Positions 1 through 14,508 of a stretch of DNA of 14,508 nucleotides are shown in pieces. Origin of the DNA: a virus; UHGV virus genome UHGV-0180765. One strand, written 5' to 3'. The translations under genes were made by a program, and so were the position numbers. Below the pieces are notes generated by a model. The model did not search any database. It saw only the letters and a program-made list of their open reading frames with translations, and was not told the DNA's origin. Each line of letters opens with the position of its first letter. Within the stretch, counting starts at the first letter, position 1.

Positions 1-27
1 ACTTATCCTTCTGCGCGGTTTTCGTGT

Positions 28-585
28 CTATACGATGCATGGATTACTCCGGATACCGCCAATCACCAGCCTGCCGTGCGGGTCGTCGTAAGCCAGTGCC
101 TGCTGCTGACCGAGTATTTTGTTGATTACCTCAATCACCGTTTCACCGTGATCAGGCTGAACATCAGGAATAACACCCGACGGCGCACCGCTGTTCACCA
201 CCTCAATGCCGAAAGGCGCAGCAAGCGCCTGCGCAATCTGCACCAGCGAGCGTCCGTTAAACTGTGTCGGTTCGGCTGCACAGTCAATCAGGTCAGCCGT
301 CAGACTACGTCCGGCAATACCGGTGCTGACCGAACGGGAATCGTAACGAACGGGCGTCGCCTCCACCCAGCCGGTGATCACCAGCTCATCACCAATCAGC
401 ACTTCCACTTTTGAACCGTTTTTAATGCGCGGCTGAAGCGTGGTGATACCCTCATCTCCCGGCCACTGGCGGGTGATCTCCACACTGAAATCCCGCGCCA
501 GCCGTTCAATACCGGCACCGATGCGCACCGATGTCCAGCCATTCCACTCCCGGCCATTTACCCGTAGCGTGACATTGTCGTTCAT
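28..585 (-). CDS. putative phage tail/baseplate protein (possibly a short or truncated Mu P / P2 gpD-like hub); assignment weak
   Basis: 185-aa ORF whose ATG (583-585) overlaps the stop of the upstream 507-aa ORF (ATGA coupling). Composition and gene order suggest a tail-module protein. It ends at a stop 27 nt from the window edge, much shorter than hub proteins of this family, so it may be frameshifted or truncated. No alignment was possible. Confidence 0.3.
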   Translation of the reverse strand: MNDNVTLRVNGREWNGWTSVRIGAGIERLARDFSVEITRQWPGDEGITTLQPRIKNGSKVEVLIGDELVITGWVEATPVRYDSRSVSTGIAGRSLTADLIDCAAEPTQFNGRSLVQIAQALAAPFGIEVVNSGAPSGVIPDVQPDHGETVIEVINKILGQQQALAYDDPHGRLVIGGIRSNPCIV

Positions 586-2105
586 TGCACTGGCACCTTC
601 AGAGGGATCACCGGCACAAAGCCGGGATGCGTAATGGCATTACGCCGGATAATGTCCGCGTCACGCGCCGCGTTATCAAACCAGGTCGCCGCCAGCACCA
701 GCGCGGGTAAAACCTCATCCGGTGTGCGCTGAATGATCCGTGCAGACTGTTCAAGGCGCGTGTTGATATCCGCATTCAGATCTGCTTTCACCCGGCGCAG
801 CGCCAGAAACAGCGCATCGCTGGTTGTACGGGACAACTCCTTATCAATTGCCGTATTCAGTGTGTCGCGAATGTCAGTCAGTTCTTCCCACGTCGGCAGG
901 TCAACCGTGTTTTTCACCGCCGGTGCATTGTTCAGTGCCGGATGCGTGACGGAAGGCCAGCCAGTGCTCTGCGCGGGTGTTGTTGCCTGCCCCACTGCGG
1001 AATTCTGCATCACCGCGGAAGTTGTTGGCGCAGGCAATCGGGTGACGGCATACGCCGCTTCGCTGATTGCGGTCGTACGAAGGGTGCTGGCAACCACGTT
1101 ACGCTGCTGCGTCGCCGTGGCGGTGGTTTTACTGTCCGTTTTCCAGACGCCGCGCGGTTGCAGATCGCTGCCGAGGCTGACACCGGAAAGCGTTTTGATC
1201 ATGGTGACCAGGTCGCTGGCGTTACCATAAAGGCGTTTCCCGGTACGCCACATTTTCTGCACCTGCTCAACGAAATTTTTGCCTGACGATGGCGGCGGCA
1301 GAAGTACCGAGATATCCCCCTGCAACAGCCTGGCGGCATCCGATACGGCAGAATCCACCACTTTCATCGCATCAGAAACATACCCAAGCATTGTGCTGGC
1401 ATTACCGATAACGTCGTTCTGCACGAAATCCGCCACACCATCGATACTGAAACCGCTGAAGCTGTCACTGATGCGGTCATCCAGTGCAGAACAGGATGAC
1501 ATCAGCGTCTGCGCCGTCGCCGCACCTGATGTGGGGTAAGAGAGTTCTCCTGCTTCGACAAACTTCAGGTCAAAGCGGACAATACGCCCTTCACTTTTCG
1601 ATGTGCTGACCCGAACTTCCCCGTCAACACAGACTTTCAGCTCACCATATGTCGGGTGGACAAGCGTGCCGGGACCGGGTTTATTCAGCGCTTCAATCAG
1701 GCGATCGCGCTGGTCAAAGCAGTCATCTCCCACCACATAAGCTGTGATGGACGGGCGGAAAGTGACTTTTCCCAGATCTTCGGTATGGCGTAACGACTGG
1801 ATAGTGGTGATATCACCGGTTACGACATCAACCAGGTCTTTGGTTTCATAACCGAGATATGTGTGTTTGAGAGCATCTTTTACCCAAGCTGGAGTGGCGA
1901 ACGTTTTACCCCTGCTGATGAGGTATTCACTGATTTCGCTGTACCACATGTGGCTGAGTGCATTCTGGGAAAGACTGCGTCTCTCGCGCCACGGTTTAAG
2001 CACCATGCGAAAGCATTTGCCGTCCTCCAGATAAGGCTGGATCTGCCGACCGATAGCGGTGAAGTTACCGCGATGCAATTTGATACCATCTTGTGGGAGG
2101 TTCAC
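582..2105 (-). CDS. putative Mu gp N-like DNA circulation / tail assembly protein
   Basis: 507-aa ORF with GTG start at 2105 preceded by GGAGGTG (RBS); Ser/Thr/Ala-rich central region; translationally coupled to the downstream 185-aa ORF. Size and gene order resemble the Mu N-P pair found in Mu-like tail modules of SfV-type phages. Family call is from memory and synteny only. Confidence 0.4.
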
Positions 2106-2380
2106 GCTTCACCTCCGCAGAGGTCAAACGTTGGATGCAAGATATCGCAGGTGCATTTCTGCATCTGTGACTGGTTGAAAGGTGTTCTGATTGTCGTTTG
2201 CACTTTGAGTCCCCTCAAAGCGCAGAAGTCACCGGAGTTGTTCAGGCTCCGATGACATGATTATGGCGAGTTGATTATGATGAATCAATAGGTTCTTATG
2301 TCAAATGGACACTAGATCCAAAGGAGGGTAACAATTATCATAGCCAATGAGATTAATCTCATTTTTAATAAGGAAATTTC

Positions 2381-3799
2381 ATGAAATATTTCTCAACTGG
2401 TTTTTATGTTTCAAACTCCACATCTCTAGCTGAGATCTTTAATGAATGTTTTTCTTGGGTAAACGACTCACCACATACAACTTTTATTCCAGCACAATTA
2501 GTATGTGATTATAAAAGCGAGGAGTACTTCATAGAGTCTAAAAATGAAAGAATTGATATAATAACTTATAAAAACAAAGATACTAGTTTAGGCTGTTTTA
2601 GGTATTCGAAAATATCTGAGCCACACAAATGGGTAACAGATATTTCAATTAATAAAAATCTCAAAACTGATACCATGTGGATTCAGGTGGAATCTAGCGT
2701 TGTAAGCCAAGATGCAGCTTATCTAGCCCCGCAACCTAAGAAACCATTAGTTGTTATGAGATTGATTGATAAATTTCCTGGTGGTCTTGATGATATTTTC
2801 AAGGTGTCAGTCGAACCTCATTCCTTAGATGATACTGATGAACATTTAAATATAGCAGCTAAAGTTATAAATGGTGAAACTGACAACAGACTACCAATAA
2901 TATACGTTAGCTCCAAGTATTTTTTTAATGAACATGCTCACAATATCATCCCAGAACGCCTTGCAAGAAAGGTATGCGGATTAGCACATGTATTAATTGA
3001 GCCTAGCAATAGACTATTTTCTATTAAGCTAAAAAATGAGACAAATGCTAAAAATGCCTATGCTGGTGCTGTTGGTATCTATTGGCCACGGGGTCAAAAT
3101 ATCAGTTTTTATCGCCGTGGTGAGAAAACCGCAAAAGAATTTGAAGATGAGTTATTTGATGATGTTGTAAGAGCTACGACTACAATGGCTCCTGTCTCAG
3201 ATAGTGGATGGAGTGAGATACAAACCAGAAAAACGAAAGACTCTATTAACTCACTCAAAGAAAGAGGAGAATACACACGCGAACTGATGGCGCTTTACGA
3301 AGCCGATAATGTTGCGAAAGATGACCAAATAGAAGATCTTAAGCATAAGATCTCCTCTTTAGAGCACAGAGTACGCACTCTTCAATCACAAGCTTCAGCC
3401 CAAGGAAGCATTGCGCTTAATGCTGGTGAAGAGACTGACTTTTTTGATGGAGAAATCAAAAATATAATTATTGACGCACTAAAAACTGCCATAAAAAATA
3501 AAAATGAATTTGGTAGAAGCTACCATATCTTATCATCCCTAATTGCCAATAATGAATACAATAAAGAAACCGAGAGTCGCCGCCAATTACTTAAAAGGAC
3601 TTTAACAGGTTACAGAAGCATGGATAGCGCAACACAAAGAAATTTAAAGGACTTAGGTTTCAGTGCGTCAAGCGATGGAAAACACTGGAAGTTAACATAT
3701 AATGAAGACCCTCGATATTCCTATATTTTACCTAAAACAGGAAGTGACCACAGAGGTTCTTTAAATGCTATCTCGGATATAGCAAATATTATTTTCTAA
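2381..3799 (+). CDS. hypothetical protein, low-GC orphan gene (function unknown; candidate accessory/defence cargo)
   Basis: 472-aa ORF with AAGGAAA RBS 4-5 nt before ATG 2381. Strongly AT-rich relative to the flanking lambda-like genes (by eye, not computed). Opposite strand to both flanking operons. Predicted coiled-coil segment in the middle (LKHKISSLEHRVRTLQSQ). No family recognised. Confidence 0.7.
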   Translation: MKYFSTGFYVSNSTSLAEIFNECFSWVNDSPHTTFIPAQLVCDYKSEEYFIESKNERIDIITYKNKDTSLGCFRYSKISEPHKWVTDISINKNLKTDTMWIQVESSVVSQDAAYLAPQPKKPLVVMRLIDKFPGGLDDIFKVSVEPHSLDDTDEHLNIAAKVINGETDNRLPIIYVSSKYFFNEHAHNIIPERLARKVCGLAHVLIEPSNRLFSIKLKNETNAKNAYAGAVGIYWPRGQNISFYRRGEKTAKEFEDELFDDVVRATTTMAPVSDSGWSEIQTRKTKDSINSLKERGEYTRELMALYEADNVAKDDQIEDLKHKISSLEHRVRTLQSQASAQGSIALNAGEETDFFDGEIKNIIIDALKTAIKNKNEFGRSYHILSSLIANNEYNKETESRRQLLKRTLTGYRSMDSATQRNLKDLGFSASSDGKHWKLTYNEDPRYSYILPKTGSDHRGSLNAISDIANIIF

Positions 3800-3806
3800 T
3801 AAATTT

Positions 3807-3834
3807 CAATAGCACTCACAAATGAGTGCTATTG
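3807..3834. terminator. strong hairpin between convergent genes (putative bidirectional terminator)
   Basis: Inverted repeat caatagcactca / tgagtgctattg with 4-nt loop (caaa), 12 nt after the stop of the 472-aa ORF and 17 nt from the stop of the convergent 84-aa ORF. T-tracts on both sides are weak. Confidence 0.5.
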
Positions 3835-3850
3835 TTGCCACTGAATTATT

Positions 3851-4105
3851 CTATTTAAATTCAACTTTTATCCCTTTGTTTAGCAGGGCATCAGAAACTG
3901 CCTTTTTTGTAACATTTATCCCTGCAAGCAATGCTTTATGCATTGGTCCCTTAAAAATCTCTACTTCTTCTTCAGTGAGTTTAGGCAATGTAATATAAAT
4001 AACATCTTTCATCTGCTTGTTTTTATAGCATGAGCTTCTTGTGTGCTTACAATCGATATTTTCTTTATTTCCCAAAACATCATCCCCTTTATAATTCAGT
4101 TCCAC
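3851..4105 (-). CDS. hypothetical small protein (AT-rich), doubtful
   Basis: 84-aa ORF from GTG 4105 with no obvious RBS; an internal ATG at 4012 (53-aa product) has only a weak RBS. It lies in the low-GC island directly downstream of ren in the pR-direction transcript. Coding status uncertain. Confidence 0.3.
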   Translation of the reverse strand: MELNYKGDDVLGNKENIDCKHTRSSCYKNKQMKDVIYITLPKLTEEEVEIFKGPMHKALLAGINVTKKAVSDALLNKGIKVEFK

Positions 4106-4169
4106 ACATCAATTATTTAGTTATCACGAATGTCGTAAAACTAAAATTAGTAACAATAATTGCTCATAC

Positions 4170-4457
4170 CTACCCTCTTCCATATAAAGCCAACACCCGC
4201 TTCATCGCGGCACTTTGACGACACTCCTTAAAAATCAGATTCGTGCTCACCTTTCCTTCCCGTTCTTCTCTGGTAGCGAACCGGTAATACACCGTTCGCC
4301 AGACCTTACCATCAACGACCAGGATTCCTGCCCGCGCCATTTTAGCCGCAGCCTGATTTATGCTGGTTACGGTTGCGCCTGTTACCGCGGCAACGTCCTG
4401 CGCACAGAAGTTCTTATGAGTCCCCAGGTAATGAATAATTGCCTCTTTGCCCGTCAT
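4170..4457 (-). CDS. ren: Ren protein (lambda Ren family)
   Basis: 95-aa product MTGKEAIIHYLGTHKNFCAQDVAAVTGATVTSINQAAAKMARAG... matches lambda Ren as I recall it over essentially its full length. Its start overlaps the P stop (ATGA), as in lambda. Confidence 0.85.
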   Translation of the reverse strand: MTGKEAIIHYLGTHKNFCAQDVAAVTGATVTSINQAAAKMARAGILVVDGKVWRTVYYRFATREEREGKVSTNLIFKECRQSAAMKRVLALYGRG

Positions 4458-5155
4458 ACACTTGCTCCTTTCAGCCCAAACTTCGCTTTGATTTCTGCGA
4501 TCTTCGCCAGAGACTGAACACGATTAAGCGGTCTCCCGCCCATAACAGGAAGTTGTTTTACTGGTTCCGGTATCGCCTCACCACGGTTAATTCGCGCTGT
4601 CATACAGGCCAGTTCATCGGCAGCCTTGCGCCGTAATTCCGCATCAGTCAGCGCATTGGCCCGCATGTTCTGATACAGGTTGGTAACCAGCCAGTAGTGC
4701 GCGTTTGATTTCCACGGATAAGACTCTGCATCCGGATACAGGCCACGTTTCCGGCAATACTCGTAAACCATATCAACCAGCTCGCTGGCGTTTGGCAGCC
4801 CGGCGGTAACGGATGCTTCTTCCCGGCACCAGGCAACAAACTGCCCGGGTGATGGCAGGAATGGTCGATTCTGCCGACGGGCTACGCGCATTCCTGCGTT
4901 AACCTGTTCCATCGTGGTGATCCCGTTTTCCCGGAAAGCCAGAACCCACTGGCGGCGGATTTCGTTCAGTTCGTTCTGGTCCCGGTTAGCCAGGCTCGCC
5001 GGGAAAGTTGCCAGTAACTGGCTGAACACACCATTGATGATCTGCGCTACCTGTTGTACCTGCGGCTTTTCGTCGTACTGTTCCGGCATGTTGTTGGCGA
5101 TCCGGCGCATCTGCTCACGGTCAAAGTTAACCATCTGTGCGGCGATGTTTTTCAT
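4454..5155 (-). CDS. P: replication protein P (DnaB helicase loader)
   Basis: 233-aa product MKNIAAQMVNFDREQMRRIANNMPEQYDEKPQVQQVAQIINGVF... matches lambda P as recalled, at the same length. Its start overlaps the O stop (ATGA). Confidence 0.9.
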   Translation of the reverse strand: MKNIAAQMVNFDREQMRRIANNMPEQYDEKPQVQQVAQIINGVFSQLLATFPASLANRDQNELNEIRRQWVLAFRENGITTMEQVNAGMRVARRQNRPFLPSPGQFVAWCREEASVTAGLPNASELVDMVYEYCRKRGLYPDAESYPWKSNAHYWLVTNLYQNMRANALTDAELRRKAADELACMTARINRGEAIPEPVKQLPVMGGRPLNRVQSLAKIAEIKAKFGLKGASV

Positions 5156-6081
5156 AAATCCACCCCGTAAATCCAGTCAGTGTTTGTCAGGTCGAGTTTT
5201 GATTTTCCGGCTGTCACGCCAGCCTGTTGCTTGTTACGGTTGATTTCGAGTTGGGTCCACTTGTCGCGGAGTTTGGCCGGACTTAGCACGTTACCGGACC
5301 AGAAGTTGTCCTGGCATGCCCAGCGGAACAGCACGCACATGTCGCGGTGGTTACGGCCGTCACGTTCACGCATCAGGCGGATATCGTTAGCCCACCCTGC
5401 AAAATTCGGTTTTCTGGCTGATGGCGCGATGGTCTTCACCATGTCAAACATCCACTCTGCGGCGGTCAGGTCTTCTGCTGTCCCCCACTTGCTGCCACTC
5501 TGAATTGCAGCATCCGGTTTAACCACAGGAAGATCGTCTTCTGGTTGGTCAGAGGATTCGCCAGAATTCTCGGACGAAAAAGGTTTTATATTGTCTTTTG
5601 TTAGTTTGTCTTTTGTGTTTACCTGATTCGGGTAAACGCCTTTACCTGATTTGGGTAAACTTTTCTTACCTGATTCAGGTAAATTTACCTCTTTCAGGTA
5701 AACTTTATTTTTCTTACCTGATTCGGGTAATGTTGACCATTCACTGACCACATTATTAATGCCTATATTCCGCCCGCTCTGAATAAAAATCCCACGCTTT
5801 ACCAGAGCACTTTTTGCAGCAGAACACTTGTGCGGCAATATCCCGGTCAACTCGGAAAGTTGCTCGTTGCTCACCCAATCCAGTTTTTTATTAAAGCCAT
5901 ATGTTTTGCGCATGACAGCCAGGAAGACCAGAAGCTGGTGCTGTGTTAATCCGGCCAGCATTACAGCTTCCAGCAACTCATTTGCAATGCGCGTATAACC
6001 ATCATCGAGATCTGCCACGCGCGGCTCCTTTTGTGCCGCATCCGGCACAGGAAAATTGAATATCTCAGCAGTGTTTGCCAT
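5152..6081 (-). CDS. O: replication initiator O (hybrid: non-lambda N-terminal iteron-binding domain, lambda-like C-terminal P-interaction domain)
   Basis: Start placed at ATG 6079-6081, preceded by GGAGG plus 4 nt; the N-terminus MANTAEIFNF... parallels lambda O MTNTAKILNF.... The C-terminal half (SSENSGESSDQPEDDL...WIYGVDL) matches lambda O as recalled. The ori iterons lie inside the gene. The ORF track's longer start at 6171 is less likely. Confidence 0.85.
   Translation of the reverse strand: MANTAEIFNFPVPDAAQKEPRVADLDDGYTRIANELLEAVMLAGLTQHQLLVFLAVMRKTYGFNKKLDWVSNEQLSELTGILPHKCSAAKSALVKRGIFIQSGRNIGINNVVSEWSTLPESGKKNKVYLKEVNLPESGKKSLPKSGKGVYPNQVNTKDKLTKDNIKPFSSENSGESSDQPEDDLPVVKPDAAIQSGSKWGTAEDLTAAEWMFDMVKTIAPSARKPNFAGWANDIRLMRERDGRNHRDMCVLFRWACQDNFWSGNVLSPAKLRDKWTQLEINRNKQQAGVTAGKSKLDLTNTDWIYGVDL
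5618..5732. repeat. replication origin iterons (five ~19-bp direct repeats) with adjacent T-rich tract
   Basis: Five copies of TTACCTGATTCGGGTAA-like repeats starting near 5618, 5641, 5666, 5685 and 5714, each internally palindromic (TTACC...GGTAA). They are followed at 5591-5617 by a duplicated ttgtcttttg T-rich tract. Located inside the O linker region, as lambda ori is. Confidence 0.75.
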
Positions 6082-6167
6082 AATTCCTCCCGCAATGAGT
6101 GTGTTACGATTTGCACCTGAAAGTCGGTTCTGTTCCCGCAGACCGACTTTCGCCATTTTTGAACCTG

Positions 6168-6707
6168 TCATATTGCCCCCAACATGGTGGTAACCATCGC
6201 CATCAATGGACCAGCCAGATCCGGGTCCACACGAAACATCGACACAATACCTTCACTCATCTCCTTCAGTTTCTGGTGGCGTGGTGCGTTGAGAATGACA
6301 GCCTGTTTTGCCTCACTGAGTTCCTTTTCCATTTCAGCCAACCGAGTCATGAAGCTATCCTGCTCAACCAGGTAACCGCGATATTCCAGCGGTAGTACCG
6401 CCAGAATTGCCGGGGTCAGTTCACGCACGTTATTTCGGTATTTTTCAGAATCGAATTTGTTATCGAGGAAGCGGAACAGCTTCTGGCGTGCACGGCTGAC
6501 ATCATCAGGGAAATCGATGGTGCCGCCGCCCTGCTCCCGATACTCATTCACAATGAGTGCGGCAACAACATCCTGATTATCTGCAGCCGACCAGGCGCGG
6601 ACGGCATCACGGATTTTTTCGTGGCCTGGCACCTGTTTTGTTTGAGAACGATTTATCACCGCAGTCGGGCTAAATCCGCTAGTCTGTTGGTATGTAAGTG
6701 GTTGCAT
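6168..6707 (-). CDS. YdaT-like protein (CII-position regulator)
   Basis: 179-aa ORF with AAGGAG RBS 6 nt before ATG 6707. Lies between the cro-like gene and O, where cII sits in lambda. Motifs EYREQGGG and TPAILAVLPLEYR resemble the Rac prophage YdaT family as I recall it. Family call is from memory. Confidence 0.5.
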   Translation of the reverse strand: MQPLTYQQTSGFSPTAVINRSQTKQVPGHEKIRDAVRAWSAADNQDVVAALIVNEYREQGGGTIDFPDDVSRARQKLFRFLDNKFDSEKYRNNVRELTPAILAVLPLEYRGYLVEQDSFMTRLAEMEKELSEAKQAVILNAPRHQKLKEMSEGIVSMFRVDPDLAGPLMAMVTTMLGAI

Positions 6708-6752
6708 AATTGACTCCTTTAGTTTGAATTGACTGTTAAGTTGATTGCTTAT

Positions 6753-6765
6753 TGTTAAAGAGCGT
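6753..6765 (-). promoter_or_regulatory. boxA-like element (nutR-type) downstream of the cro-like gene
   Basis: The minus strand reads CGCTCTTTAACAA, the boxA consensus, 12 nt after the cro-like stop codon, where nutR sits in lambda. No convincing boxB hairpin was found next to it. Confidence 0.45.
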
Positions 6766-6776
6766 GAAATGGAAAT

Positions 6777-7007
6777 TTAAGCTGCGTTCTTTTCGGTGTG
6801 TGGAAACAACTTCGGAAGATCCGGGCGAATCTGGTATGCCTTCACTACTCCACCAGTAGCCGTAACAATGCTGCCGACATGTTCAGGGGATACCTTTGCT
6901 TTGTTGTGAAGCCACTTATAGACGGCCTGCTGTGAAACTTCGCAGGCAGCGCCCAGTTTCTTTTGTGAACCAACGATATTGATCGCTGTTTTGATAGCTG
7001 GGTTCAT
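6777..7007 (-). CDS. Cro/YdaS-family helix-turn-helix regulator
   Basis: 76-aa ORF with GGAGG RBS 5 nt before ATG 7007; an HTH-like segment (GSQKKLGAACEVSQQAVYKW); divergent from the CI-like repressor gene across an operator region. Confidence 0.6.
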   Translation of the reverse strand: MNPAIKTAINIVGSQKKLGAACEVSQQAVYKWLHNKAKVSPEHVGSIVTATGGVVKAYQIRPDLPKLFPHTEKNAA

Positions 7008-7111
7008 AACAACCTCCGTGGTTAATTCGAATCAAGATTAAAACTATGGTTGTTTTTAGTCAACAACCATTTTCGTTTGATAGAATAAAACCTTGGTTGT
7101 ACATTTGGACT
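7008..7111. promoter_or_regulatory. oR-type operator region with divergent pR (minus) and pRM (plus) promoters
   Basis: Perfect inverted repeat ATGGTTGTT-7nt-AACAACCAT at 7046-7070, plus further TGGTTGT/ACAACCA half-sites at 7008-7014, 7019-7025 (degenerate) and 7094-7100. Candidate pRM: -35 TTGATA 7077-7082, 17-nt spacer, -10 TACATT 7100-7105, placing the transcript start at or next to the cI ATG (leaderless, as for lambda pRM). Candidate pR on the minus strand: -35 TTGACT (plus 7058-7063) and -10 TTTAAT (plus 7037-7042). Confidence 0.6.
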
Positions 7112-7801
7112 ATGAAAACAACACTCTCAGAAAGACTTAAAGAAGCCAGATTAGCGCGAGGCCTTACACAAAAGGCGCTTGGGGATTTGGTCGGGGTTAG
7201 CCAAGCTGCTATTCAGAAAATCGAAACAGGGAAAGCTAACCAAACAACTAAAATCGTGGAGATCGCGAACGCTTTGGGTGTGCGCGCAGAATGGTTATCT
7301 TCTGGCGTTGGAAATATGTCAGACAGTACAGTGCAACCAATACCATCAACTGTCAGCCATTCCAAATACTTTAAGATTGACGTTCTTGATATAGAAGTGA
7401 GTGCCGGGCCGGGAGTCATCAACCGTGAGTTTGTAGAAGTTCTACGCTCGGTTGAGTACTCGTTTGACGATGCTCGTCACATGTTCGATGGTAGGAAGGC
7501 AGAAAATATCCGCATCATTAACGTACGCGGTGACAGCATGTCAGGAACGATCGAACCAGGTGATCTGCTGTTCGTTGATATCACGGTTAAATCTTTCGAC
7601 GGTGATGGCATCTATGCGTTTCTGTACGACGACACCGCCCATGTAAAGCGCCTGCAAATGATGAAGGATAAGCTGCTGGTTATCTCTGATAACAAGAGCT
7701 ACTCACCGTGGGACCCGATCGAGAAAGACGAGATGAACCGGGTGTTTATCTTCGGGAAAGTTATTGGGAGCATGCCGCAAACATATAGGAAGCATGGTTA
7801 G
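7112..7801 (+). CDS. CI-type prophage repressor (XRE HTH + S24 LexA-like autopeptidase domain)
   Basis: 229-aa product from ATG 7112 (MKTTLSERLKEARLARGLTQKALGDLVGVSQAAIQKIE...). N-terminal HTH; C-terminal S24 motifs GDSM (Ser nucleophile) and VKRL (Lys). The upstream extension to 7046 in the ORF track is spurious, as its ATG is part of the operator palindrome. Confidence 0.85.
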   Translation: MKTTLSERLKEARLARGLTQKALGDLVGVSQAAIQKIETGKANQTTKIVEIANALGVRAEWLSSGVGNMSDSTVQPIPSTVSHSKYFKIDVLDIEVSAGPGVINREFVEVLRSVEYSFDDARHMFDGRKAENIRIINVRGDSMSGTIEPGDLLFVDITVKSFDGDGIYAFLYDDTAHVKRLQMMKDKLLVISDNKSYSPWDPIEKDEMNRVFIFGKVIGSMPQTYRKHG

Positions 7802-7872
7802 CTAAAACACAAGATAGACTTACCTACAAACAACCACCAGTTAAAATAAATAAAAATCAAAGAGATAATGTC

Positions 7873-8784
7873 ATGAGCCATCAGTCCGCCCACCAACAAG
7901 AAATGTCTTTATTTCCTGTAAAAGAAGTTGAAGTAAACGGTGTACAAATGGGTGTTCTCAATGATGGAACTCCATTTTTGAGTCTCCGTGGATTATCTAG
8001 GTTATGTGGGGTCGATCACACCACACTTTTACCTCTCACCACCAACTGGTCAATAGAAAAGAATAAACCCAGAGGAAGGAGAATTGCGGAGCTTCTTTCA
8101 GAGAATGGTTTTAAAGGTGATCAATTATATTCCGTTGTCGGCGGAGGCGCATTTGGTGATACACATGCCTATCCAGATGCCGTATGCATGGCAATTCTTG
8201 AATATTATGCTTTCGATGCCACACAGGTTGATAGCACTATAGCCAGGAAAAATTACCGCCTATTAGCACGTCAAACACTTCGAGACTATATATACAAAAG
8301 TGTAGGTATTGACCCGAGAAATCCAATTAGTGGCGCCTGGAAATGTTTTCAAGAGCGAATATTGCTTAATGACAAAATTCCTGCAGGTTTCTTCAGTGTT
8401 TTTAGAGAGATGGTCGATATCACAGTTCCACTTATCAATGCAGGATTTGAGCTTGGCCCAAAAACAGTACCTGATATTAGTGTGGGTGGACGATGGGCAA
8501 TCCACTGGAAGAAAAACAATCTTAGTGAAAAATATGGCGATGTGAAAAAATATCCACATGAATATCCAGATTGGTTTCCTCAAAGTAAAGCAGGAAAAGT
8601 TCCTGCCAATATTTATCCGGAAGAGGCTTTAGGTGAATTTCGCAGATGGCTAAGAGAAGAATACATTCCAAAGGGTTTCAAAGATTATCTTGCTGATAAA
8701 GTTCAGCAGAAAGTAATTGAAAATACTAAGGCTATTGAAGTTTTAGAAAATTTGCAGCGCCCAAATCTCCCTAAGGCTCGTTAA
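7873..8784 (+). CDS. hypothetical protein encoded between repressor and pL (rexAB-equivalent position); function unknown
   Basis: 303-aa ORF, AT-rich relative to cI (by eye), followed by its own intrinsic terminator. The N-terminal ~60 residues (LFPVKEVEVNGVQMGVLNDGTPFLSLRGLSRLCGV) loosely resemble the pattern of Bro-N/ORF6N-type phage DNA-binding domains; this is an impression, not an alignment. C-terminus is Tyr/Trp/Pro-rich. Confidence 0.7.
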   Translation: MSHQSAHQQEMSLFPVKEVEVNGVQMGVLNDGTPFLSLRGLSRLCGVDHTTLLPLTTNWSIEKNKPRGRRIAELLSENGFKGDQLYSVVGGGAFGDTHAYPDAVCMAILEYYAFDATQVDSTIARKNYRLLARQTLRDYIYKSVGIDPRNPISGAWKCFQERILLNDKIPAGFFSVFREMVDITVPLINAGFELGPKTVPDISVGGRWAIHWKKNNLSEKYGDVKKYPHEYPDWFPQSKAGKVPANIYPEEALGEFRRWLREEYIPKGFKDYLADKVQQKVIENTKAIEVLENLQRPNLPKAR

Positions 8785-8791
8785 TTCTCAT

Positions 8792-9262: not shown

Positions 9263-9469
9263 ATGGTTCATCAACATTACGGAACGCAGACCGTTAATCG
9301 AGGTGCGGTCATGCCAGGAATGCTGGTCAAACACAAAGATGGTACCTGGACTGCATCAGCTAATTTACGCGGACGGCTATATCTGCATCGCGGCATCGAG
9401 CGCACTTATACCCGTGATTTGCTCGTGGAAGTTTTTCTCGACGGACGCGGTAACGGCCTGAATCACTAA
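9263..9469 (+). CDS. hypothetical small protein upstream of gam (kil/cIII position); may be the C-terminal part of a longer N-like ORF
   Basis: ATG 9263 is preceded by AGGAG plus 5 nt; 68 aa. The same frame is open back to 9059 (TTG), with GTG at 9092, giving an Arg-rich N-terminus (RGVRGVKRTRERR). Start choice and identity unresolved. Confidence 0.35.
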
Positions 9470-9544: not shown

Positions 9545-9841
9545 ATGAACGCTTATTACATTCAGGATCGTCTTGAGGCTCAGAGCTGGGCACGTCACTA
9601 CCAGCTGATCGCCCGTGAAGAGAAAGAGGCAGAACTGGCAGACGACATGGAAAAAGGTCTTCCACAGCACCTGTTTGAATCACTCTGCATCGATCATTTG
9701 CAACGCCACGGGGCCAGCAAAAAAGCCATTACTCGTGCATTTGATGACGATGTTGAGTTTCAGGAGCGTATGGCAGAACACATCCGGTACATGGTTGAAA
9801 CCATTGCTCACCACCAGGTTGATATTGATTCAGAGGTATAA
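9545..9841 (+). CDS. gam: Gam (RecBCD inhibitor), short form
   Basis: 98-aa product [44 protein letters not shown]... matches lambda GamS as recalled. RBS AGGAG upstream. The GamL extension is interrupted by in-frame stops. Confidence 0.9.
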
Positions 9842-9846
9842 AGCGG

Positions 9847-10632
9847 ATGAGTACAGCACTCGCAACGCTGGCAGGGAAGCTGGCTGAACGTGTCGGCATG
9901 GATTCTGTCGACCCACAGGAACTGATCACCACTCTTCGCCAGACGGCATTTAAAGGTGATGCCAGCGATGCGCAGTTCATCGCATTGTTGATCGTCGCCA
10001 ACCAGTACGGCCTTAATCCGTGGACGAAAGAAATTTACGCCTTCCCTGATAAGCAGAACGGCATCGTTCCGGTGGTGGGCGTTGATGGCTGGTCCCGCAT
10101 CATCAATGAAAACCAGCAGTTTGATGGCATGGACTTTGAGCAGGACAATGAATCCTGTACATGCCGGATTTACCGCAAGGACCGTAATCATCCGATCTGC
10201 GTTACCGAATGGATGGATGAATGCCGCCGCGAACCATTCAAAACTCGCGAAGGCAGAGAAATCACGGGGCCGTGGCAGTCGCATCCCAAACGGATGTTAC
10301 GGCATAAAGCCATGATTCAGTGTGCCCGTCTGGCCTTCGGATTTGCTGGTATCTATGACAAGGATGAAGCCGAGCGCATTGTCGAAAATACTGCATACAC
10401 TGCAGAACGTCAGCCAGAACGCGACATCACTCCGGTTAACGATGAAACCATGCAGGAGATTAACACTCTGCTGATCGCCCTGGATAAAACATGGGATGAC
10501 GACTTATTGCCGCTCTGTTCCCAGATATTTCGCCGCGACATTCGTGCATCGTCAGAACTGACACAGGCCGAAGCAGTGAAAGCTCTTGGATTCCTGAAAC
10601 AAAAAGCCACTGAGCAGAAGGTGGCAGCATGA
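9847..10632 (+). CDS. bet: Bet (Red-beta single-strand annealing protein)
   Basis: 261-aa product [44 protein letters not shown]... matches lambda Bet as recalled along its full length. Confidence 0.95.
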
Positions 10633-11309
10633 CACCGGACATTATCCTGCAGCGTACCGGGATCGACGTGAGAGCTGTCGAGCAGGGGGATGATGCGTGG
10701 CACAAATTACGGCTCGGCGTCATCACCGCTTCAGAAGTTCACAATGTGATAGCAAAACCCCGCTCCGGAAAAAAGTGGCCTGACATGAAAATGTCCTACT
10801 TCCACACCCTGCTGGCTGAGGTTTGCACCGGTGTGGCTCCGGAAGTTAATGCTAAGGCGCTGGCATGGGGAAAACAGTACGAGAACGACGCCAGAACTCT
10901 GTTTGAATTCACTTCCGGCGTGAATGTTACTGAATCCCCGATCATCTATCGCGACGAAAGTATGCGTACCGCCTGCTCTCCCGATGGTTTATGCAGTGAC
11001 GGCAATGGCCTTGAGCTGAAATGCCCGTTTACCTCCCGGGATTTCATGAAATTCCGGCTCGGTGGTTTCGAGGCCATAAAGTCGGCTTACATGGCCCAGG
11101 TGCAGTACAGCATGTGGGTGACGCGAAAAGATGCCTGGTACTTTGCCAACTATGACCCACGAATGAAGCGTGAAGGCCTGCATTATGTCGTGGTTGAGCG
11201 GGATGAAAAGTACATGGCGAATTTTGACGAGATGGTGCCGGAGTTCATCGAAAAAATGGACGAGGCACTGGCTGAAATTGGTTTTGTATTTGGGGAGCAA
11301 TGGCGATGA
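10629..11309 (+). CDS. exo: Exo (Red-alpha 5'-3' exonuclease)
   Basis: 226-aa product [50 protein letters not shown]... matches lambda Exo as recalled. Start overlaps the bet stop (ATGA). Confidence 0.95.
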
Positions 11310-11464: not shown

Positions 11465-12213
11465 TTCATTTTCACGGTGGTCCAATAACTCCCGATACCT
11501 GTGCGTTGAAAGCCTGGAAAGGCAGACACGCATTCATCAGTTTTGCTAATCCAGCTCAGATTGATCTGGCTTCCGAAGTCACCCAATCATTTGCTCTTGA
11601 TAATGGTGCATTCACATTCTGGACAAAAAACAAGGCCGTAGACTGGAATGAATATTACAGATTTGTTGAACGCTGGGGTAATCACCCTCGTTTCTCATTC
11701 GCGGTTATCCCGGATGTTATCGGCGGAACCAGTGAAGAGAATGACGCCCTGATTGCGGCATGGCCTCACGGTAAATTTATTGGTGCTCCGGTGTGGCACA
11801 TGAACGAACCAGATGAGCGATTTATTCGTCTGTGCCATGAGTTTCCCCGCGTCTGCATCGGCTCGATGGGGGAATACGATGCAAAACGACCGAGAGCGTG
11901 TCGGGCTAAACTACGCGATCTTATACGTCATGTTGTAGATCAGTACGGCTACCCAATCACCAAGATTCATGGGTTACGGATGTTAAATAAAGACATTTTT
12001 ACTCATGTACCGCTTTCGTCTGCAGACAGCACGAACGTCGCAAGAAATATAGGCATCGACAAATCCTGGGTAGGTTCGCCATATGCTCCCGCAAGTAAAG
12101 AAACCCGTACGCAAGTTCTTGTGGAACGCATTGAATCATTCAACAGTGCCAGTTCACTTAATTACAACGCTGAACGGGACGTCTTTACCCCTCAACTGGC
12201 ATTCGAAGTGTGA
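11461..12213 (+). CDS. TGT-superfamily (tRNA-guanine transglycosylase-like) protein; candidate DpdA-like DNA transglycosylase
   Basis: 250-aa ORF with GGGAGAG RBS. Four segments, in the order seen in tRNA-guanine transglycosylases, resemble conserved TGT motifs as I recall them: LDNGAF (cf. TDSGGFQ, catalytic Asp), VIGGTSEEN (cf. VQGGMYENL), CIGSMGE (cf. AIGGLSVGE), ADSTNVARNIG (cf. FDCVMPTRNARNG, second catalytic Asp). No CxCxxC...H zinc cluster visible. Not confirmed by alignment. Confidence 0.6.
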   Translation: MIHFHGGPITPDTCALKAWKGRHAFISFANPAQIDLASEVTQSFALDNGAFTFWTKNKAVDWNEYYRFVERWGNHPRFSFAVIPDVIGGTSEENDALIAAWPHGKFIGAPVWHMNEPDERFIRLCHEFPRVCIGSMGEYDAKRPRACRAKLRDLIRHVVDQYGYPITKIHGLRMLNKDIFTHVPLSSADSTNVARNIGIDKSWVGSPYAPASKETRTQVLVERIESFNSASSLNYNAERDVFTPQLAFEV

Positions 12214-12220
12214 GGCCAAT

Positions 12221-12436
12221 ATGACAATAGAACATAATAACGCCCTTCGCAGCATAGCCCGTCAGGCTAATTCTGAAATCAAAAAAGCCAGACAGCAGTT
12301 TCCGGATAAAAACGTCGATGACATTTGCCGTAGCGTACTGAAGAAGCACCGCGAAACGGTAACGCTGATGGGATTCACACCGACTCATTTAAGCCTGGCG
12401 ATCGGCATGTTAAACGGCGTCTTTAAGGAGCGATGA
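12221..12436 (+). CDS. hypothetical small protein (71 aa)
   Basis: ATG 12221 is 5 nt after GAGG and 8 nt after the stop of the preceding gene. The longer track ORF from 12083 overlaps the upstream gene in another frame and is less likely. Confidence 0.5.
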   Translation: MTIEHNNALRSIARQANSEIKKARQQFPDKNVDDICRSVLKKHRETVTLMGFTPTHLSLAIGMLNGVFKER

Positions 12437-12458
12437 ACATGAAAAGCAAAATCATCAG

Positions 12459-12480
12459 GGAGCTACAGGCTCCTTTTTTA
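12459..12480 (+). terminator. intrinsic terminator within the early-left operon
   Basis: Stem GGAGC (12459-12463), loop tacag, stem GCTCC (12469-12473), followed by TTTTTTATT. Lies between the 71-aa gene and the TraR-like gene. Confidence 0.5.
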
Positions 12481-12534
12481 TTATTCGCATTCACCCTCAA
12501 GCGTATTAACCAACAATTCAGGGATTAATGGAAG

Positions 12535-12753
12535 ATGGCAGACATCATTGATTCAGCATCAGAAATCGAAGAATTACAGCGCAATACAGCAATAAAAATG
12601 CGTCGTCTGAACCACCAGGTTATATCTGCCACTCATTGTTGTGAGTGTGGCGATCCCATAGATGAACGAAGACGCCTGGCCGTTCAGGGTTGTCGGACTT
12701 GTGCAAGTTGCCAGGAGGAGATCGAACTTAAGAACAAACAATGGGGATTGTGA
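12535..12753 (+). CDS. TraR/DksA-family C4 zinc-finger protein
   Basis: 72-aa product with CCECGDPI...(x17)...CRTCASC, the CxxC-x17-CxxC arrangement of TraR/DksA-type small phage/plasmid proteins. Confidence 0.7.
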   Translation: MADIIDSASEIEELQRNTAIKMRRLNHQVISATHCCECGDPIDERRRLAVQGCRTCASCQEEIELKNKQWGL

Positions 12754-12800
12754 TGGCCTCAAAGCAGCAAATTTCAACATCGTCCAACTGAGGTGTAAAA

Positions 12801-13079
12801 ATGTTCAGAATCATTTTTCCTAACACCTGGTACATCGACCACCACGGCACTCCCTGCAAAATCCTGCGTTCTACCCACAACAAAGTTCACTACATCCGAA
12901 AAGGCAGAACATGTATCGCCAGCATGTTCCGCTTTAATCATGACTTTGAACCTGTGAATAAAGCTGATGCAGATCGGATAGCAGAAGAGATCGAAACGGC
13001 AGAACACATTAAGAAGTTACGTGACATGCGTTCAAAAAGCAGAGGTAACCATGGAATCATACAGCCTCACACTCGATGA
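12801..13079 (+). CDS. hypothetical protein (ea-region, upstream of xis)
   Basis: 92-aa ORF with GAGG RBS 8 nt before ATG 12801; its end overlaps the xis start by 29 nt in another frame. Confidence 0.5.
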   Translation: MFRIIFPNTWYIDHHGTPCKILRSTHNKVHYIRKGRTCIASMFRFNHDFEPVNKADADRIAEEIETAEHIKKLRDMRSKSRGNHGIIQPHTR

Positions 13080-13401
13080 GGCCTGTCAGTTTCTCAAGAT
13101 ATCCAGACCTACCGCTACCAACTGGATACGAACAGGCCGCCTACAGGCAACACGCAAAGACCCCACTAAACTAAAATCTCCTTACCTCACAACACGACAA
13201 GCCTGCATTGCGGCGCTTCAGTCTCCGCTGCATACTGTCCAGGTGAGCGCGGGTGATGGCATAACAGAGGAAAGAAAATGTCACTCTTCCGCAGAGGTGA
13301 AATATGGTACGCCAGTTTCACATTGCCGAACGGTAAAAGATTTAAACAGTCTCTTGGAACAAAGGACAAAAGGCAGGCGACAGAGCTCCATGACAAGCTA
13401 A
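13051..13401 (+). CDS. xis: excisionase (P22 Xis type)
   Basis: 116-aa product from ATG 13051 ([38 protein letters not shown]...) resembles P22 Xis as recalled; its 3' part overlaps the int start. Confidence 0.8.
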
Positions 13402-14441
13402 AGGCTGAAGCATGGCGGGTCAGCAAACTTGGTGAAATACCTGATATGACGTTCGAGGAGGCGTGTATCAGGTGGCTCGAAGAGAAAGCACATAAAAAAT
13501 CACTGGACGATGACAAAAGCCGGATCGGATTCTGGCTTCAACATTTCGCAGGAATGCAACTAAGAGACATTACTGAATCAAAAATTTATTCAGCAATGCA
13601 GAAAATGACGAACCGGCGTCATGAGGAAAACTGGAAACTCAGGGCAGAAGCATGCAGAAAAAAAGGGAAACCTGTTCCAGAATACACGCCAAAACCAGCG
13701 TCCGTTGCAACGAAGGCTACGCATCTTTCATTTATAAAGGCCCTACTAAGAGCCGCAGAGCGTGAATGGAAAATGCTGGATAAGGCACCAATTATTAAAG
13801 TGCCTCAACCAAAGAATAAACGGATCCGCTGGCTGGAGCCCCATGAAGCACAAAGGCTGATTGATGAATGTCCGGAGCCATTAAAGTCTGTTGTTGAATT
13901 TGCACTGGCAACAGGCTTAAGACGCTCGAACATCATCAACCTTGAATGGCAACAAATAGATATGCAGCGCCGGGTGGCATGGATAAACCCGGAAGAGAGT
14001 AAATCAAACCGCGCAATCGGCGTTGCGCTGAATGATACTGCATGTCGCGTTTTGAAAAAACAAATCGGGAATCATCACCGTTGGGTATTTGTGTACAAGG
14101 AAAGCTGTACCAAACCAGACGGAACGAAAGCGCCAACAGTAAGGAAGATGCGGTATGACGCAAACACAGCCTGGAAAGCGGCGCTGAGACGGGCTGGTAT
14201 TGATGATTTCAGATTTCACGACTTGAGACACACCTGGGCAAGTTGGCTGGTTCAAGCCGGAGTCCCGTTGTCAGTGTTACAGGAAATGGGAGGCTGGGAG
14301 TCTATCGAAATGGTTCGTCGATATGCTCACCTTGCACCTAATCACCTTACCGAACACGCACGGCAAATAGACTCGATCCTGAACCCATCGGTCCCAAATT
14401 TGTCCCAGTCAAAAAATAAGGAAGGTACTAATGATGTGTAA
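13278..14441 (+). CDS. int: tyrosine integrase (P22 Int type)
   Basis: 387-aa product [47 protein letters not shown]... with tyrosine-recombinase motifs near the C-terminus ([17 protein letters not shown]). Resembles P22 Int as recalled. RBS AGAGGA upstream. Transcribed toward the tRNA 14 nt beyond its stop. Confidence 0.95.
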
Positions 14442-14455
14442 CTTATTGATTTAAA

Positions 14456-14508
14456 TGGTGCCGATAATAGGAGTCGAACCTACGACCTTCGCATTACGAA
14501 TGCGCTGC
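14456..14508 (-). tRNA. thrW: tRNA-Thr (anticodon CGU), 3' 53 nt only; continues beyond the window
   Basis: The reverse complement of the window end reads ...GCGCATTCGTAATGCGAAGGTCGTAGGTTCGACTCCTATTATCGGCACCA: anticodon loop TTCGTAA (anticodon CGT), T-arm GTAGG-TTCGACT-CCTAT, acceptor 3' strand, discriminator A and CCA. The 3' end points toward int, the usual att arrangement. Confidence 0.8.

Follow-up and report, generated by a model that had tools for sequence, protein, structure and literature searches.

Anatomy of a defective SfV/e14-type prophage and a candidate TA breakpoint hotspot in its gene N

The window (the whole stretch of 14,508 nt analysed in this study) very probably represents one end of a defective SfV/e14-type temperate phage, in which about 19 kb of roughly 38 kb was removed from a single prophage by two deletions at short homologies. 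In phages of this type, the early region is lambda-like, the contractile tail is Mu-like, and integration takes place at the tRNA-Thr gene thrW. The anatomy of the remnant, the endpoints of its deletions, and the deletion sizes were established by base-level alignment. The element is ordinary, save that TA sites found at both deletion ends also bound deletions in unrelated E. coli. Taken alone, it is one more defective prophage. The case nevertheless shows how a lambda-like early region comes to adjoin Mu-like tail fragments, and that deletions in such remnants can create chimeric ORFs, which should not be annotated as tail genes.

The retained end of the prophage

The features of the window are as follows, by position and strand.

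1..40, minus: 5' end of a tail-fibre gene (gp53-like), start codon at 38-40, continuing leftward off the window
28..585, minus: truncated Mu-P/gp44-like baseplate hub ORF, 185 aa, ATG start
44..55, minus: last 12 nt of ymfQ/gp48 including the stop codon, the sole remainder of that gene
53..55: junction 2, left by the 3,131-bp deletion, microhomology TAT (late-gene strand)
582..2105, minus: chimeric ORF YbcN(1-~108)::N(43-442), 507 aa, GTG start
582..1786, minus: N-derived part of the chimera, codons 43-442, Mu N-like DNA circulation/tail protein
1782..1786: junction 1, left by the 15,871-bp deletion, 5-bp microhomology GGTAT (plus strand), which is ATACC on the late-gene strand
1787..2105, minus: ybcN-derived part of the chimera, first ~107-108 of 151 codons, gene in the NinB position
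2381..3799, plus: 472-aa ORF within a low-GC (33-40%) island, read against the direction of pR transcription
4170-4457, minus: ren, by protein family matches
4454-5155, minus: lambda-type P, by protein family matches
5152-6171, minus: lambda-type O, by protein family matches
~5600-5735: five ori iterons, TTACC(C/T)GAAWSAGGTAA
6168-6707, minus: YdaT/CII-like gene (Pfam/PHROG)
6777-7007, minus: Cro-like gene (Pfam/PHROG)
7046-7801, plus: CI-type S24 repressor gene (Pfam/PHROG)
7873-8784, plus: BstA abortive-infection gene (PADLOC, E 7e-122)
9263-9469, plus: kil, by family matches and gene calls
9545-9841, plus: gam, by family matches and gene calls
9847-10632, plus: bet/RecT, by family matches and gene calls
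10629-11309, plus: exo/YqaJ, by family matches and gene calls
13278-14441, plus: integrase gene (SfV/P22-type), 387 aa, PF00589
14438-14501: att core repeat of 64 bp, repeated at the other prophage end in the intact relative L007 (7649-7712)
14456-14508, minus: 3' part of the tRNA-Thr gene thrW at the prophage end; a tRNA-Thr gene stands at the matching place in L007

The genes kept are int, the Red genes exo/bet/gam, kil, the CI/Cro immunity genes, BstA, O/P with the origin, ren, and the 472-aa cargo gene. The window matches SfI through int, and its att core duplicates the 3' end of thrW. According to a published report (PMC3636060), SfI has homology to SfV, e14, and lambda, and thrW is its integration site. 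No Q, lysis, terminase, or head genes were found within the 14,508-nt window. The genes for an HNH endonuclease, a P27-type terminase, an HK97-type head, the sheath, the tube, and the baseplate that are missing from the window fall within the two stretches of L007 (15,871 and 3,131 bp) that the window skips. As it has no complete late region, the element is a remnant and not a functional member of the SfV/e14 type; it cannot produce particles or lyse its host. The original prediction had held that nin, Q, lysis, and head genes are all absent. This is correct for Q, lysis, and head, but not for nin, since part of ybcN (in the NinB position) remains.

The same prediction had pointed to a low-GC island between the Mu-like gene pair and ren. 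The island is present; however, it is a normal cargo gene of intact relatives and not a deletion scar. Its 472-aa ORF occupies the same place in the intact relatives JS01 and YZ22MPE54, and the gene is widespread, sitting in a cargo hotspot between ren and ybcN. The protein matched no Pfam or NCBIfam family and no PDB sequence, and its AF2 model (pLDDT 83) matched no PDB fold at E <= 0.001; a weak PADLOC match to HEC-07 (1e-9) was the only one obtained. BstA and the 472-aa gene, both kept in the remnant, are likely host-benefit genes. The source of the window is a 15-kb metagenome contig, and the fibre/gtr/attR side and the host strain are outside it. This parent contig stops about 480 nt to the left of the window, within the fibre gene, for which a 165-aa ORF was called on the contig.

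Two deletions and the reading frames they left

E. coli YZ22MPE54 carries an intact prophage at thrW (L007), which holds both halves of the window element in one prophage. Its gene order runs from int to P, ren, an 84-aa ORF, the 472-aa ORF, ybcN, nin, Q, and lysis, and then on to HNH, terminase, head, sheath, tape measure, N, P, baseplate, fibre, and gtr. Together with SfV, SfI, SfII, and SfIV, this prophage resembles the window element in its thrW integrase and attachment site, in gene order, and in N/P (97-99% identity). These phages and the YZ22MPE54 prophage are complete, measure 37-40 kb, and use cos packaging, whereas the window element lacks about 19 kb comprising all lysis, packaging, head, and sheath genes and most baseplate genes. 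The ybcN-to-P stretch of the window is 99-100% identical to intact prophages, and its closest full-length match is JS01, which has a lambda-type and not a Mu-type tail. Alignment to an intact relative had been suggested as a way to map the deletion endpoints, and with YZ22MPE54 both could be placed to the base. The two clean deletions (15,871 and 3,131 bp) that emerged bear out the proposed large internal deletion and cryptic remnant. No IS was present at either junction of the element.

Deletion 1 joins ybcN at about codon 108 to N at codon 43, as seen in three-way alignments. Lost with it (15,871 bp) were what remained of nin, Q, the genes for lysis, the HNH endonuclease, the terminase, portal, protease, and capsid, as well as the head-tail connectors, sheath, tube, and tape measure; by chance, the YbcN::N chimera it left is in frame. 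Deletion 2 connects P codon 177 with the final 12 nt of ymfQ/gp48 (three-way alignment; the blastn pieces overlap at 53-55). It removed the P C-terminus, gp45, gp46, gp47, and gp48, so that the truncated P ORF now abuts the fibre gene.

The 507-aa ORF, found on the minus strand at 582..2105 as predicted, is an in-frame fusion made by deletion 1 and not a native N gene. The predicted reading frame of the chimera uses the native ribosome-binding site and GTG start of ybcN (start context GGAGGTGAAGCGTG). Its ybcN part (1787-2105) is 100% identical to ybcN of E. coli JS01 and 99.2% identical to L007. The NCBIfam model NF007281 (YbcN) matched over positions 1-113 of 151, with 187 bits against a cut-off of 164; YbcN is not of full length, as the C-terminal 43 residues of the 151-residue protein are deleted. 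The N part (582-1786) shows 97.8% identity to L007 15685-16889 and 98.3% to SfV 11794-12998. Across window positions 53-1786, the DNA is 98.3% identical to SfV orf15/orf16; the annotation of these two genes in the SfV record notes their similarity to Mu N and Mu P. A profile search against the Mu DNA circulation model, recommended in the original prediction, matched DNA_circ_N (PF07157) with an E-value of 1.7e-16. The domain is incomplete: profile positions 36-88 of 88 were matched, and native N codons 1-42 are replaced by YbcN residues. Among PHROG profiles, phrog_72 (E 1e-31) covers residues 1-116 and phrog_184 covers residues 107-505. At 507 aa, the ORF exceeds the real length of N, which is 442-447 aa (translated). 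The supposed resemblance to Mu N therefore holds for N codons 43-442, at 98% to SfV orf15, but the ORF itself is a YbcN fusion and not N. A match to a nin-region family had been named as a finding that would speak against a tail protein. Such a match exists for half of the case, in YbcN residues 1-~108, yet it marks the deletion endpoint and refutes nothing.

The 185-aa ORF lies on the minus strand at 28..585 and is coupled to the 507-aa ORF by a 4-nt ATGA overlap (...GTGCAATGAACG...), again as predicted. N and P thus keep the order of SfV and their overlap, with both genes truncated. The ORF consists of P codons 1-177 followed by eight out-of-frame codons that read into the start of the fibre gene. 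When the protein was searched against the gpD/gp44 hub families, GpP-like_1st (PF21683, E 1e-23) and Gp44-like_2nd (PF22255, E 2e-27) were the only Pfam matches; the hub domain set is incomplete, and a full-length relative (L019) also carries GpP_4th. These Pfam matches and the identity to SfV orf15/orf16 confirm a Mu-like gene pair near lambda-type replication genes (ren at 4170-4457, P/O at 4454-6171). The hub ORF is indeed short, with 185 aa against 359 aa in native orf16, and the SfV match stops at window position 53; however, the cause is the second, separate deletion and not the edge of the window. Window positions 1-55 are 100% identical to L007 11973-12027, a segment that includes the start of the fibre CDS (12012), and the same stretch is exact in the closed genome LR-46. 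In L007, ymfQ spans 12016-12600, of which the window covers 12016-12027.

TA breakpoints in gene N

Gene N contains two TA dinucleotides 23 bp apart (SfV positions 11772/11795), TA|CCCGAAC (site A) and TA|CCGAAG (site B), and junction 1 coincides with the recurrent breakpoint at site B. About 25 different junctions in other, unrelated assemblies join either flank of the two TAs to different partners, in a catalogue that came in part from searches seeded on the N site itself. TA was inside the microhomology at 10 of 15 mapped junctions, compared with 0.88 expected (P ~1e-9). The left and right flanks at the N sites overlap by the 2-bp TA, and one remnant retains just the 25 nt between the two. 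In the closed genome LR-46, a junction of like kind lies at the N site used in the window. Many sites outside N, in P, gp46, gp47, ymfQ, portal, and the tape-measure gene, likewise showed a preference for TA. An unrelated remnant (L034) has the right-hand boundary of junction 2, TA|TCCGGAG, in its own junction, which reads CCCTATA|TCCGGAGTAATCCATGCATCG. When a 600-nt query across the N sites was searched against complete genomes, none of the 60 sampled rows began at site A or B, indicating that such truncations are apparently uncommon among complete genomes. Pattern scans of JGI metagenomes and GTDB representatives gave no non-native DNA beside site B, and a scan of viral contigs gave no site A junctions.

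Both deletions of the window end at TA sites that recur as boundaries in other strains. This reuse points to a break at a TA(Y)CCG-like sequence, which would then be followed by microhomology joining. It is tentatively proposed that the decay of SfV/e14-type prophages is non-random, with a candidate break or recombination activity that prefers TA in a TA(Y)CCG-like context. The strongest hotspot would possibly be a two-sided one formed by two repeats in N, A|TACCCGAAC and A|TACCGAAG. The breaking agent could be phage-encoded, for example a cos-adjacent HNH endonuclease; members of this family reportedly nick AC^C(S)G-type sites. If the proposal is true, the SfV-type phage carries the seed of its own inactivation, and the domestication of E. 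coli/Shigella prophages would be partly programmed and predictable, with e14 of K-12 as one product.

Several known activities were considered for the hotspot and rejected. Recombination by Pin/Gin/Cin at quasi-sites does not fit, as the e14 Pin crossover sites read TTCTCCCAAACC-AA-GGTTT and the junctions cross at TA and not at AA; the junction nearest to pin is about 100 nt from a Pin crossover site. Terminase cutting at a pseudo-cos was dismissed as well, since the 10-nt cohesive end of SfI/SfV, TGCCCGCCCC (PMC3636060), is unlike TA|CCGAAG or TA|TCCGGAG. Site B agrees with P22 pac at 13 of 22 bases, but 39 plus-strand positions of SfV score at least 13. A hairpin or cruciform at the hotspot was discounted by a single-strand DNA fold z of -0.5, and a resemblance of the N sites to the thrW att core, judged by eye, was unconvincing. 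Moron insertions between the tape-measure gene and N are intergenic and away from the sites. As a separate observation, site A shares TACCCGAA with the half-site of an ori iteron, a weak lead toward a pseudo-iteron for the O protein; it ranks 48 of 76,802 by the iteron PWM, with about 35 better non-iteron sites.

The breakpoints might instead mark where an IS once occupied the TA in N, before transposase and the IS-excision enhancer (IEE) cut it out. IEE is reported in >33% of E. coli assemblies; it has end-joining activity, stimulates excision of elements of the IS3, IS1, and IS30 families, and reportedly causes deletions beside the IS that range from a few nt to >40 kb and are closed by microhomology (PMC9943667). 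This description matches the observed combination of one exact end with partners that vary on both sides and the absence of any remaining IS, and the 2-bp TA overlap of the flanks resembles a 2-bp target duplication. An IS origin is nevertheless unlikely: pattern scans covering IMG/VR, the JGI metagenomes, and the GTDB representatives (few E. coli are among them) showed no IS at either N site, and the TA preference in P, portal, and the other genes named above would need a separate IS for each.

The position of the first junction could also be reached by a deletion between neighbouring or tandem prophages, running from ybcN of one to N of the next. SfV-like tandem prophages do exist in the ET201 chromosome, and a deletion spanning them would yield an identical junction; moreover, the lambda-type tail of JS01, the best match to the ybcN-to-P stretch, implies that the halves can differ in history. 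This course of events is improbable, however, considering that YZ22MPE54 holds both halves at 97-99% identity in one prophage with the same int and att, that deletion within a single prophage requires fewer events, and that order and strand match a simple deletion.

It is quite improbable that the N-P fragments were kept for a new function, such as tail interference against superinfecting SfV-like phages. The reading frame does continue across the fusion, with the native ybcN start signals kept, and at least four other in-frame X::N(43-442) fusions exist. But out-of-frame junctions occur at the same base too (L008, L012, L018, and LR-46), which places the choice of site in the DNA and not in selection on the protein. 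In addition, an in-frame outcome has a chance of 1/3, and half of the hub and the N-terminal half of the DNA_circ_N domain are missing. We infer that the two fragments have no function of their own.

That the junctions are assembly artefacts, in which a lambdoid prophage was misjoined to an unrelated SfV-like prophage, is hardly credible. The DNA itself comes from a single contig of 15,029 bp, assembled from a metagenome by MEGAHIT at k119, and neither junction is present in 5,426 complete E. coli genomes. Yet the 5 and 3 bp shared at the joins are far too short for path merging in a k=119 graph. Moreover, exact copies of the 507-aa and 185-aa proteins occur on four contigs from at least three samples (ENA and independent Logan assemblies, the longest 33 kb), and closed genomes show like junctions, LR-46 at the same N site and K-12 e14 at a TA boundary elsewhere.

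Comparison with other defective elements

Nick sites of rolling-circle origins are deletion hotspots in M13 and pC194, and deletions fixed at such a nick or break have one exact end, a variable other end, and little or no homology, as is the case here. The same pattern is found in IS excision by IEE (PMC9943667). The gene N sites differ from these systems in that both flanks are used and overlap by TA, and no IS, origin, or nickase site is known in N.

Among the defective lambdoid prophages of K-12, DLP12, Rac, and Qin keep some immunity, recombination, and cargo genes after the loss of morphogenesis genes. They have lambda-type tails or none, occupy other att sites, and their decay is mostly IS-linked, in contrast to the two junctions described here, neither of which has an IS. 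DLP12 shares the ybcN, rusA, and quuD-type nin genes. In a separate case, the closed genome LR-46 has an early region without O and P.

The e14 element of K-12 (L022) has reportedly been compared with SfV. Like the window element, it is of SfV type, has a lambda-like early region and Mu-like baseplate/fibre remnants, and is defective by internal deletions. Unlike the window element, e14 has another int and occupies icd; nothing of its tail genes N and P is left, and O, replication P, and ren are gone too. The window element lies at thrW, where its replication genes and Red genes persist along with N(43-442) and P(1-177). The portal|gp47 junction of e14 crosses at GGTA/TA, and the native sequence on its left, GTGGTA|CCGAAGC, shares the 8-mer TACCGAAG with site B of N.

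Two deletions mapped on an intact prophage

The window carries two short-homology deletions in one prophage, with endpoints at recurrent TA sites. They affect a pair of overlapping genes, which appear in a six-frame ORF list as follows:

582-2105, minus strand: long ORF, 507 aa, GTG start
28-585, minus strand: short ORF, 185 aa

The two share 4 nt, GTGCAATGAACG on the coding strand (ATGA coupling). Pfam matched the C-terminal half of DNA_circ_N in the long ORF (profile positions 36-88 of 88) and Mu P/gp44 hub domains 1 and 2 in the short one. Window 53-1786 is 98.3% identical in DNA to SfV orf15/orf16, for which the SfV record notes similarity to Mu N and to Mu P. The original prediction of a coupled N-P pair was thus borne out. 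Its question of nin-region family versus tail protein was answered by both: PHROG profiles assigned residues 1-116 of the long ORF to the NinB/Orf family (phrog_72, E 1e-31) and residues 107-505 to a baseplate-hub/DNA-circulation family (phrog_184, E 7e-118), and NCBIfam NF007281 (YbcN family) matched above its curated cut-off over 1-113 of 151 profile positions. Window 1782-4500, running from ybcN through hypothetical genes and ren to P, is 99-100% identical to intact E. coli prophages, and this match shares 5 nt of the window with the SfV-like match. Because the matches are split, and native N has 442-447 aa and native YbcN 151 aa, the 507-aa ORF is YbcN(1-~108) with N(43-442) fused to it in frame. 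The chimera has kept the ribosome-binding site and GTG start of native ybcN. In the strict sense it lies outside the N family, as part of the N-terminal domain has been lost; the 185-aa ORF amounts to half a hub.

E. coli YZ22MPE54 contains a complete prophage at the tRNA-Thr gene thrW, whose gene order agrees with the window over every stretch that the window retains (int ... P, ren, 84-aa ORF, 472-aa ORF, ybcN). After ybcN follow ninE, DUF1364, rusA, ylcG, Q, holin, lysozyme, spanins, HNH, terS and terL; then portal, protease, capsid, connectors, sheath, tube, tape measure, N and P; and after tail P, gp45, gp46, gp47, ymfQ, fibre, tfa and gtrABC. By blastn, the window falls on this locus (L007) in three collinear pieces:

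window 1-55: L007 11973-12027
window 53-1786: L007 15156-16889
window 1782-6708: L007 32756-37682

It follows that deletion 1 (ybcN|N) removed 15,871 bp, with a 5-bp overlap, ATACC on the late-gene strand, and deletion 2 (P|ymfQ) removed 3,131 bp, with a 3-bp overlap, TAT. Both junctions were aligned three ways, with the two native sequences visible on either side. P codons 1-177 are followed by the last 12 nt of ymfQ and the fibre gene start, with a stop 8 codons on; the hub ORF is short because deletion 2 cuts P after codon 177. About 19.0 of roughly 38.3 kb were lost. Window 14438-14501 recurs at the far end of the reference prophage, abutting thrW, which shows that the window extends to the element's integrase end.

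The predicted large internal deletion, cryptic remnant and shortened hub are accordingly supported, with endpoints now mapped on an intact genome and with corrections: the 507-aa ORF is a fusion, the short hub results from deletion 2, and the low-GC island is cargo. The element is a rare new member of a well-known kind, the defective SfV/e14-type prophage; with its late region gone, it does not count as a functional phage of that family.

Identical copies of the 507-aa and 185-aa proteins were found on four contigs that come from no fewer than 3 samples (ENA MEGAHIT and Logan assemblies; longest 33 kb), and an assembler cannot make a false join from a 3-5-bp overlap in a k=119 graph. Neither junction was found in 5,426 complete E. 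coli genomes, so this particular remnant is rare. Two short-homology deletions within one prophage very probably account for its structure; a deletion across two tandem prophages, an arrangement that exists in E. coli ET201, requires more events and is very improbable. In ET201 (NZ_CP100994.1 3585590-3620917), an SfV-like prophage end (fibre, baseplate, N) adjoins the integrase end of a second such prophage, and the annotation marks many genes as frameshifted.

Recurrent breakpoints in gene N

The remnant alone is ordinary; what is surprising, and directly testable, is the recurrence of TA-anchored breakpoints. In the 90% cluster of the chimera protein, other fusions have an Rz-type spanin, DUF1364/YbcO or RusA as N-terminal partner and join at the same N residue (...|TEDLGK); a head-closure fusion joins 8 codons upstream (...Y|PNRDKPY). 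In the DNA of further loci, N-derived sequence always starts at one of two sites, 23 bp apart, each preceded by A:

Site B, SfV 11795, 5'-TACCGAAGA; upstream partners ybcN (window), mid-terL (L010), terL 3' end with a different N allele (L018), tape measure (LR-46, a complete genome) and a TerB-like moron (L008)
Site A, SfV 11772, 5'-TACCCGAAC; upstream partners sheath (L012) and the early-left region of a prophage at another att site (L011)

In a reverse class, verified in the DNA of nine loci (L024-L030, L033, L034), N(1-42) (...DKPY) or N(1-35) (...THEY) has no fewer than 12 different downstream partners. Left flanks end ...CCCTATA and right flanks start TACC..., so TA, and nothing more, is common to both flanks, the pattern expected of a 2-nt staggered cut or a 2-bp target duplication. 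All that is left in L034 is the 25-nt piece between the two sites, and its right junction is the ymfQ-end boundary TA|TCCGGAG, shared with window junction 2. In K-12 e14, the portal|gp47 junction has its crossover at GGTA. The native sequence on its left is a further TACCGAAG, which that strand of the 38-kb reference contains just three times; the right boundary of the junction is shared with L018.

TA lay inside the microhomology at 10 of the 15 junctions where it could be assigned by hand, whereas pairs of positions drawn at random in this DNA would give 0.88 (P about 1e-9); part of the catalogue came from site-anchored queries (window-protein cluster, DNA patterns), and events in related strains may be of common descent. 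The arms that were kept often have the form TA(N0-2)CC(G). Searches open to any position in the first ~60 N codons placed nearly all junctions on the two TAs, the exceptions being P0102 (one or two bases off), P0053 (codon 85) and AF56 (near codon 24). Complete genomes rarely have N truncated at these sites (0 of 60 sampled rows start at site A or B).

Other rearrangements occur in related loci. E. coli AR_0119 (L023 7204-7208) has a 357-bp sheath-gene deletion (L007rc 27052|27405) crossing GCTGGTG/GGTGCTG, a Chi-like sequence and among the few junctions without TA. L008 (IMGVR_UViG_2737471841_000009) encodes a 245-aa ORF at 5582-6319 (-) that fuses a CII-like N-terminus to a Q-like antiterminator C-terminus, which would mean that another deletion removed the cII-to-Q stretch. 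The short tape measure-N spacer holds unrelated inserted genes in E. coli AR_0055, RM9088, Z0117EC0116, CNREC_004-43 and OkiPb01685 (L014-L017, L020): a 164-aa hypothetical, a PH-domain protein, an opposite-strand OB-fold protein, and 225-aa and 176-aa hypotheticals. Beyond the pin invertase, some far ends carry a GIY-YIG (LEM-3-like) nuclease or GmrSD/DUF262 gene (L024 4905-5678, L027 4288-6177 and L030 5725-7614, all minus strand).

Possible origin of the breaks

We infer that a defined DNA end forms at TA and may then be joined to a variable partner through 1-5 nt of homology. Phage HNH endonucleases encoded beside cos are site-specific nickases with sites of the AC^CG, AC^CSG and AY^S type (PMC3592412). 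An HNH gene of the cos-adjacent type is present in the SfV-like prophages compared. An HNH endonuclease as the breaking agent is a lead rather than a result, and the nicks described for this family fall one base away from the boundary inferred at the N sites. IS excision aided by IEE has been documented to leave one-sided, IS-free microhomology deletions (PMC9943667); it is an unlikely source of these breakpoints, and pattern scans of IMG/VR, JGI metagenomes and GTDB representatives found no IS at the sites. Pin-type invertase sites, cos, a P22-type pac site, hairpins and att core likeness do not fit, and likeness to O-protein iterons is weak.

Cargo, immunity and replication genes

To the right of the tail ORFs, the window continues with ren, lambda-type P, O, a YdaT/CII-like gene, cro and a CI-type repressor gene, and further on BstA, kil, gam, bet, exo and integrase. 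Family matches to ren, P and O confirm the predicted company of lambda-type replication genes. The window has no Q, lysis, terminase or head gene, as predicted for Q, lysis and head; the claimed absence of nin genes is not complete, since YbcN(1-~108), of the NinB/Orf family, remains.

The low-GC island between ren and ybcN contains one long ORF:

2381-3799, plus strand: low-GC ORF, 472 aa

Since intact prophages hold this ORF at the same place, the island is cargo and not a scar. The slot (window 2106-4169; compared in L002, L006 and L007) has a phospholipase D-like gene, a P22AR-C and DNA pol III theta pair, or TagO in other strains; as strains differ in this way, the gap is a cargo hotspot. 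Relatives of the 472-aa protein form a ~470-aa family in Enterobacterales, Pseudomonas and Caulobacter. It matched no Pfam or NCBIfam family and nothing in the PDB by sequence or fold, and matched PADLOC HEC-07 weakly (1e-9). A confident AF2 model (pLDDT 83.4, pTM 0.62) predicts a central coiled coil. The ORF is a candidate for a defence or cargo function.

The CI-type repressor gene is closely followed by a full-length BstA gene for abortive infection, 7873-8784 (+) (PADLOC E 7e-122). In the immunity region (6709-7349 and 7801-8791), the window differs from the YZ22MPE54 prophage, to which it is otherwise nearly identical. Five origin iterons, TTACC(C/T)GAAWSAGGTAA, lie within the O gene at ~5600-5735 (-) and are followed by an A-rich stretch; their half-site core, TACCCGAA, is also present at N site A.
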